A DNA stretch of 6,682 nucleotides from a virus (lineage: Duplodnaviria; Heunggongvirae; Uroviricota; Caudoviricetes), in IMG/VR virus record IMGVR_UViG_2778261354_000004; one strand, written 5' to 3'. The notes beneath the pieces are model-generated. The model saw only the letters and a list, made by a program, of their open reading frames with translations. It ran no database searches and had not been told where the DNA came from. Of this stretch, positions 935 to 1,639 are shown one piece after another. The first letter of the stretch is position 1. Each line of letters starts with the position of its first letter. The position numbers and the translations under genes were made by a program.

Positions 935-1639
935 ATGTCCTCTAATTTTGAGCGTTCGCAACTGACGAAAATTATGATTTCGTCTGCACCGGTAACAGCA
1001 GAAACCCTGGATTCTGCCAGCTATCTTGGCCTGAGCTGTACAATCAAAGAGGTGCAGTTTACCGCAGGACAAAAGCAGGATATTGATGTCACCACGCTGT
1101 GTTCTGTTGAGCAGGAAAATATTAACGGTCTTGGGGCTGCTTCAGAGATTTCCATGTCAGGCAACTTTTATCTGAATGCTGCCCAGAACGCGTTGCGCAG
1201 TGCCTATGACAATGACACCACGTATGGCTTTAAAGTTATTTTTCCGTCAGGCAACGGATTTACCTTTATGGCAGAGGTGCGTCAGCATACCTGGTCTGCA
1301 GGAACCAATGGTGTTGTGGCTGCAACGTTTTCTCTGCGCCTGAAAGGTAAGCCTGTGCTGACGACAGAGCCGCTGAAAGTGAAGGTCGATTTAAAAAGCA
1401 CGCTGCGGGTTGCTTCCGGAGCGAAACTTGAAATGGCGGTTGAGGCTGTGGGTGGTGTGCCGCCTTATTCTTATGCCTGGAAAAAAGGTGGTTCTCCTGT
1501 TTCCGGACAGACGGCGGCAACGTTCAGTAAGGCATCAGCAGCATCCGGTGATGCCGGTGCGTATACCTGCGAGATTTCTGATTCAGCGAGCCCGGTTAAC
1601 AAAGTGACCTCCACTTCCTGCACTGTAACCGTCAGTTAA
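935..1639 (+). CDS. V: major tail protein (lambda V-like) with C-terminal Ig-like domain
   Basis: 234-aa ORF with AGGAG at 924-928, 6 nt before ATG 935. Size is close to lambda gpV, and it lies directly upstream of the G/T chaperone pair and the tape measure gene. The C-terminal ~85 aa carry Ig-fold hallmarks (YAWKKGG ... DAGAYTCEISD). Stop TAA 1637-1639 overlaps the next ATG (TAATG). Confidence 0.85.
   Translation: MSSNFERSQLTKIMISSAPVTAETLDSASYLGLSCTIKEVQFTAGQKQDIDVTTLCSVEQENINGLGAASEISMSGNFYLNAAQNALRSAYDNDTTYGFKVIFPSGNGFTFMAEVRQHTWSAGTNGVVAATFSLRLKGKPVLTTEPLKVKVDLKSTLRVASGAKLEMAVEAVGGVPPYSYAWKKGGSPVSGQTAATFSKASAASGDAGAYTCEISDSASPVNKVTSTSCTVTVS

Follow-up and report, generated by a model that had tools for sequence, protein, structure and literature searches.

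The question raised by this locus is whether the C-terminal part of a phage major tail protein, which appeared from the letters to be an immunoglobulin (Ig)-like domain without its first canonical cysteine, is a genuine Ig domain, whether it was acquired as a module, and what it could do on the surface of a tail. The window, by which we mean the whole 6,682-nucleotide stretch of DNA that was analyzed, comprises the tail genes of an E. coli siphophage or prophage that is lambdoid and HK97-like (Table 1).

Tail Genes and the Tube Protein

The major tail gene follows the tail terminator gene and precedes the genes for the tail assembly chaperones, and the flanking genes are of the same families as those of HK97. 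Its product matched PHROG 158, "major tail protein", across residues 1–234 (E = 3e-109) and was 72% identical over its full length both to HK97 gp12 (NP_037706) and to ORF64 of BP-4795. Both appear among the I-set major tail proteins of PMC9022992 (Table 3), in its summary of the survey of Fraser et al. 2006. At the nucleotide level, the gene was 99.7% identical to its counterparts in several induced E. coli phages, e.g., vB_EcoS-640R1, where the gene order is the same and the counterpart is annotated as a "putative major tail subunit". The product is very probably an HK97 gp12-type siphophage tail tube protein composed of a tube domain, a linker, and an Ig domain, a degree of confidence that concerns identity and architecture only.

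The borders of the three parts were drawn from alignments and from a predicted structure. The tube domain gave a structural match to lambda gpV tube structures in Foldseek, and it paired end to end with orthologs of 147 aa that consist of the tube alone, the similarity ending past K139-P140 (nt 1354). In the AlphaFold model, the linker that follows lies between the final strand of the tube and the strand with which the Ig domain begins. A single uninterrupted reading frame (935–1639) encodes both the tube and the Ig domains, which is not the arrangement of SPP1 gp17.1*, where the extra domain is appended by frameshifting. The original prediction had placed the Ig domain at 1380–1636 and had given it about 85 residues. 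The region was right and the length roughly so; however, nt 1380 is out of frame, being the middle base of codon 149 (the codon of residue 150 begins at nt 1382), and the domain is slightly longer, with its first predicted strand beginning at residue 148 (nt 1376).

Table 1. Positions of the tail genes in the window and of the domains, linker, and key residues of the major tail protein.
Feature	Position (nt)	Strand	Remarks
HK97-gp10-like neck protein	84–533		
Tail terminator/completion protein	530–874		
Major tail (tube) protein gene	935–1639	+	234 aa plus stop; HK97 gp12 ortholog
Tube-forming domain, residues 1–140	935–1354	+	Weak Phage_TTP_11, Phage_tail_2, and Phage_TTP_12 matches
Variable linker VLTTEPL, residues 141–147	1355–1375	+	Variable, gapped columns in the 44-sequence alignment
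Immunoglobulin-superfamily domain, C2/I-set type, residues 148–234	1376–1636	+	Pfam, model, Foldseek, and PDB matches
V169 codon (GTT), canonical B-strand Cys position	1439–1441	+	BLASTP alignment to CEA-type Ig
W182 codon, C-strand Trp	1478–1480	+	Trp in 43 of 44 homologs; aligns with the canonical Trp
D206-A-G-A-Y-T-C212, tyrosine-corner/F-strand motif	1550–1570	+	Canonical counterpart NSGSYTC
C229 codon, G-strand Cys	1619–1621	+	Cys in 38 of 44 homologs
Chaperone, G-like	about 1654–2025		
T-like protein	2037–2327		
Tape measure protein	2368–5601		
gpM-like protein	5549–5935		
gpL-like protein	5935–6633		

The order of the genes in HK97 is alike (HK97-gp10-like, tail terminator, major tail, G/GT chaperones, tape measure), and the downstream tail genes of lambda (G, T, H, M, and L) share their Pfam families with those of the window. 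An A AAA AAG −1 slippery heptamer at 2016–2022 stands directly before the stop codon of the G-like gene (2023–2025), and the −1 frame entered there continues into the T-like ORF, so that a G-T fusion is expected; the homologous G/T pair of HK97 is annotated as a −1 frameshift. The chaperone ORF was called from an ATG at 1639 that overlaps the stop codon of the major tail gene (TAATG). Its real start is likely the ATG at 1654, which has GAGGA upstream at 1642–1646 and agrees with phage annotation and with short orthologs (MKNIKNLALA...).

Terminator-like sites were more numerous than expected in this part of the window, with five found within 800–2450 vs. 1.7 expected from shuffles. A GC-rich hairpin at 895–911, with a T run reaching to about 921, lies between the tail terminator and major tail genes, a position at which HK97 carries a "putative terminator" annotation. 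In HK97, a putative terminator is also annotated directly behind gp12, whereas none was found after the major tail gene of the window. A second GC-rich hairpin with a T run (2336–2351) lies between the T-like and tape measure genes. In related prophages, this gap contains small extra genes (L002 4178–4513, L003 4179–4514, and L005 4181–4369), which include a Zn_ribbon_3-like ORF of 111 aa and a YebO-like ORF of 62 aa. The HK97 "moron" gp15 occupies the same spot, whereas the window has only the terminator-like hairpin there.

Fold and Cysteines of the C-Terminal Domain

Profile and sequence searches both assigned the C-terminal domain to the Ig superfamily. Scanned alone, it scored 30.9 bits against Pfam Ig_2 (E = 3e-7), above the gathering cut-off of 27, and Ig_2 was retained at 30.0 bits with the full-length protein. 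The I-set score was marginal for the domain alone (24.0 bits vs. a cut-off of 23.7) and under the cut-off for the full length (21.0 bits), while Ig_3 (28.6 vs. 30) and "ig" scored under their own cut-offs. The PHROG matches of this stretch were to Hoc-like head decoration and tail protein families. A phmmer search of the PDB recovered the multi-Ig phage proteins 9c2d_S (a tail protein; E = 6e-28) and 9ncf_S (E = 2.7e-27), the decoration proteins 8zvi (E = 7e-17) and 5lxk (E = 2e-15), and human CEA (E = 1e-8). The entry 5lxk is pb10 of phage T5 (PMC7602432). By sequence, the closest solved relatives are phage Ig-domain tail and decoration proteins, T5 pb10 among them.

An AlphaFold2 model built from 44 homologs had block-mean pLDDT values of 90–96 from residue 151 to the C-terminus. 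It predicted an Ig-type two-sheet beta-sandwich with eight to nine strands (148–151, 156–159, 165–172, 179–184, 187–188, 196–199, 208–215, 223–225, and 229–233), within the seven to nine of such a fold. Foldseek aligned the model with the Ig C2 domain of human MALT1 (3bfo_A; TM 0.90, rmsd 1.5 Å, 91 columns) and also returned Ig domains of titin, Dscam, and CD22, the decoration protein of phage Moo19 (rmsd 1.3 Å), and the N4 decoration protein; full-length lambda gpV superposed on the whole model. In the predicted topology, strand A is split (A/A'), C' is short (187–188), and no D strand lies between C' and E (196–199). The C2 pattern is ABCC'EFG (PMC12051499) and the I-set topology is A A' B C C' D E F G, and the predicted model looks nearer to the C2-set than to the full I-set as defined in PMC12051499. 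Pfam ranked Ig_2 above I-set; HK97 gp12 is placed under I-set in the literature (PMC9022992).

The Ig fold that had been proposed for this region was borne out by the Ig_2 score over the cut-off, by the confident beta-sandwich model, and by the Foldseek matches to canonical C2 and I-set domains. Among the Pfam Ig-like families, the support came from Ig_2 and marginally from I-set, and none came from Big_2. It is extremely improbable that the Trp and DxGxYxC pattern is a coincidence in a protein that has no Ig domain, a reading that would fit the scores of Ig_3, "ig", and (in the full-length scan) I-set under their cut-offs but that is refuted by Ig_2, the strong matches to solved phage Ig proteins, and the confident model with its fold matches.

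The domain had also been described as a different Ig subtype from that of lambda gpV, and this description held. The C-terminal domain of gpV is a Big_2 domain (70.1 bits), the type of tail-tube decoration to which T5 pb6 also belongs, whereas the window protein gave no Big_2 match down to E = 1, and the Ig module showed no BLASTP similarity to gpV (E = 5.2). The plan of the two proteins is the same, i.e., a tube domain and then one in-frame Ig-like beta-sandwich displayed on the tail, although their tube domains are only remotely related (15–18% identity in Foldseek alignments). The Ig-like domain at the C-terminus of T5 pb10 (5LXK and 8ZVI) belongs to the same sequence family as the domain in the window. 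The shared features of the pb10 type are a GG-x-PY-x-Y-x-W-x-K-x-G motif, DAG-x-Y, and the G-strand Cys; in pb10, however, the Ig domain is joined to a capsid-binding helical domain rather than to a tube domain.

Both motifs on which the original prediction was based were located, YAWKKGG at residues 180–186 (nt 1472–1492) and DAGAYTC at residues 206–212. The protein has the Trp and the D-x-G-x-Y-x-C of the Ig superfamily, and the second motif is well conserved (G208 in 43 of the 44 homologs; D206, Y210, and C212 in 39 each). Its only cysteines are residues 35, 56, 212, and 229. A BLASTP alignment (E = 1e-8) was made to a canonical CEA B-type Ig sequence, which serves as a lead only; it placed the B-strand Cys at V169, the Trp at W182, and the F-strand Cys at C212. 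The independent PDB match 1e07_A covers the same region. Column 169 is Val in 42 of the full-length homologs and Ile in the other two, and Cys was found in none of the 44 across residues 141–205. In the PDB search alignments, Cys was likewise absent from the B-strand segment of the Ig repeats of 9c2d_S, 9ncf_S, and 8zvi. The protein has V169, a hydrophobic residue, in the place of the first disulfide Cys of extracellular Ig domains and so lacks the B-to-F disulfide pair, as had been claimed. Because none of the 44 homologs has a Cys there, the absence is, on this alignment, a property of the whole family and not an anomaly of one copy. HK97 gp12, which is also 234 aa long, has the same Trp, DxGxYxC, and G-strand Cys and likewise no B-strand Cys.

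The cytoplasm in which structural proteins of phages fold is reducing, and a structural B–F disulfide is missing from many cytoplasmic I-set domains, e.g., those of titin. The Ig domain of the tail protein would similarly fold there with no disulfide. Canonical Ig domains that lack the bridge are known, e.g., in CD2, and the pair is typical rather than obligatory (PMC12051499).

An obligatory disulfide between C212 and C229, on the adjacent F and G strands, was considered as a substitute. The two residues occur independently (both in 33 homologs, only C229 in five, and only C212 in six), and such a bond is therefore unlikely. In the PDB search alignments, 8zvi, which is of the pb10 type, has the G-strand Cys (STTCAVTV) and not the F-strand Cys that the window protein keeps as C212, whereas 9c2d_S has the F-strand Cys only. 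In pb10, C153 sits in strand beta7 (PMC5292684). The packing of the core around V169, C212, and C229 was read from the alignment only.

Modularity and Prevalence of the Ig Domain

A likely modular acquisition had been proposed for the Ig domain, and three lines of evidence support this. The first comes from the 147-aa orthologs, in which the tube domain is 75–79% identical through K139-P140 and the protein then ends (...ENIESGS). These orthologs share the gene order of the window, and the chaperone gene begins 8 nt past their stop codon, which leaves no Ig-coding DNA concealed in a different frame. They include P0108 (on a Leclercia chromosome), P0113, P0114, and P0117, and, in a complete genome, E. 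coli phage SaltyDalty, a plaque-forming isolate according to its GenBank record. The second is an exhaustive search with the tube domain alone, in which the majority of the distant relatives had 135–160 aa and so consist of the tube only. The third is QEA09530.1 of Klebsiella phage ST13-OXA48phi12.5. Over its last 88 residues, it is 56% identical to the Ig domain of the window, and no BLASTP similarity was found between its N-terminal part and the window protein. The Ig domain is a portable module, absent from close relatives in the same synteny and present on unrelated tube proteins.

QEA09530.1 (L011 3003–3767) is annotated as a "DNA breaking-rejoining protein", yet it lies in a tail module and has a weak Phage_tail_2 match; most likely the annotation is wrong and this is a major tail protein. 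Irregular copies were also seen among the homologs. P0095, the "major tail subunit" (294 aa) of E. coli prophage CP-933V, has tail-completion sequence fused upstream and stops soon after the start of the Ig domain (...LAFVKNPRRHLP); it looks like a frameshifted or pseudogenized copy. By alignment, P0012 has a deletion of 30 residues within the tube domain (residues 74–103), which the other 204–221-aa members of P0011–P0015 probably share.

Divergence is faster in the Ig domain than in the tube domain, with a mean identity of 51% vs. 75% in the 44-sequence alignment. The sequences of HK97 and BP-4795 likewise differ from that of the window to a greater extent in the Ig domain. Some homologs look mosaic, specifically P0008, in which the tube is 98% and the Ig domain 74% identical, and the P0097 group, with values of 74% for the tube and 26–33% for the Ig domain. 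GC content gave no foreign mark (0.54 in the Ig module, 0.47 in the tube domain, and 0.52 in the window). When the Ig module was used by itself as the query of a word-indexed homolog search, 11 fragments, all of the same protein, were the only matches.

Matches with at least 80% nucleotide identity were present in 899 of 5426 complete E. coli genomes, i.e., a sixth. Among the matches listed, all eight were annotated as "immunoglobulin domain-containing protein", a name that many protein clusters also carry. Relatives occur in the plant-associated genera Pectobacterium, Dickeya, and Erwinia as well. The Ig-bearing HK97-type tail tube is an architecture that has already been described, and the observation is correct but ordinary, because the domain of HK97 gp12 has been catalogued and the label is already in hundreds of E. 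coli genomes.

Possible Roles on the Tail Surface

The Ig domain is encoded in frame, and therefore every subunit carries one. By analogy with the tubes of lambda, T5, YSD1, and SPP1 and with pb10 (PMC8718954, PMC9022992, PMC5292684), each tube subunit would display one Ig copy on the exterior of the tail, which would amount to a few hundred per virion. Polymerization of the tube would not require the domain, which could be a dispensable accessory adhesin that makes many weak contacts with surface carbohydrates of the host envelope and possibly of mucus. Such weak multivalent contacts would hold the virion close to the cell surface, speed the finding of the receptor, and improve adsorption. 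SPP1 gp17.1* is a known case of an accessory Ig-like domain on the exterior of a siphophage tube without which the phage remains viable, although there it is an FN3 domain, added through a +1 frameshift to about a quarter of the subunits, whereas the domain in the window belongs to the Ig superfamily. The carbohydrate-binding role of tail-tube Ig domains has been described as "to be experimentally verified" (PMC8718954). On these analogies, the Ig domain may well act as a weak adhesin for surface glycans, and we judge the chance of this to be about even.

The main rival to adhesion is structural contact, in which the Ig domain would mainly touch neighboring tube subunits and stabilize or stiffen the tail, as has been proposed for the C-terminal domain of lambda gpV. 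The Big_2 domain of lambda touches the neighboring subunit and its removal cuts activity 100-fold (PMC8718954), and the superposition of the whole model on full-length gpV would agree with a similar placement. In T5 and YSD1, the tail-tube domain is disordered and orthogonal to the tube. The domain family, however, differs from that of lambda, and no Ig domain at all is present in orthologs that have 75–79% tube identity and an unchanged gene order, one of them from a sequenced E. coli phage. In addition, the Ig domain evolves much faster than the tube domain and has been swapped between unrelated tube proteins, both of which fit poorly with a co-adapted interface. A mainly structural role is consequently unlikely.

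A different target for adhesion was also weighed, namely that the Ig domain binds animal mucus or epithelial glycans and so would keep the virions of gut lysogens in mucus. The domain is homologous to the Ig domains of Hoc-like and pb10 decoration proteins, for which mucus binding has been proposed (PMC5292684, PMC7602432), and a 2026 study reportedly describes Ig-like proteins of gut phages that mediate epithelial adherence (PMC13370021). Among the eight exact-match genomes listed, six are from human isolates. The relatives in plant-associated Pectobacterium, Dickeya, and Erwinia argue against this target, as animal mucus is irrelevant there, and we regard it as unlikely. It is quite improbable that the fast-evolving Ig cassette of this very common E. 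coli prophage family is an adhesin for gut mucus or epithelium and not for bacteria, traded among tubes as an adaptation to the host environment. If this were true, virions from lysogens would be retained on the mucosa.

Display of the domain could also be regulated. A T TTA AAA heptamer, which occurs once within the window, lies in the zero frame at D152-L153-K154 (nt 1390–1396; GA T TTA AAA AGC), where the Ig domain starts. After a −1 slip there, translation would stop 11 codons on and give a product of roughly 165 aa, so that tube-only subunits would be mixed with Ig-bearing ones; frameshift-controlled Ig display is known, e.g., in SPP1 gp17.1* (PMC9022992, PMC8718954). However, K154 (AAA) is found in only three of the 44 homologs, with Pro in 30, the slip site is absent from HK97 gp12, and the downstream RNA was no more structured than shuffled sequence (z = −0.65). 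Moreover, E. coli ribosomes slip poorly at XXA AAA in comparison with XXA AAG. Regulated display is highly improbable, and the −1 frameshift was rejected as unconserved and without a stimulatory structure.

As a discovery, the finding is of small value. According to recent reviews, which also treat them, a 2006 survey had already catalogued the Ig-superfamily domains of major tail proteins of the HK97 type, and the NCBI pipeline already names the protein "immunoglobulin domain-containing protein". The missing Cys can be explained as a family-wide Val in a domain that would fold in the cytoplasm, and it need not be flagged as an anomaly in future scans. For the proposed role as a glycan adhesin, the family offers a natural experiment, in which near-identical tube domains occur with and without the Ig domain and the same module is carried on unrelated tubes. 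This natural experiment could test the long-standing idea that such domains may be weak glycan adhesins.
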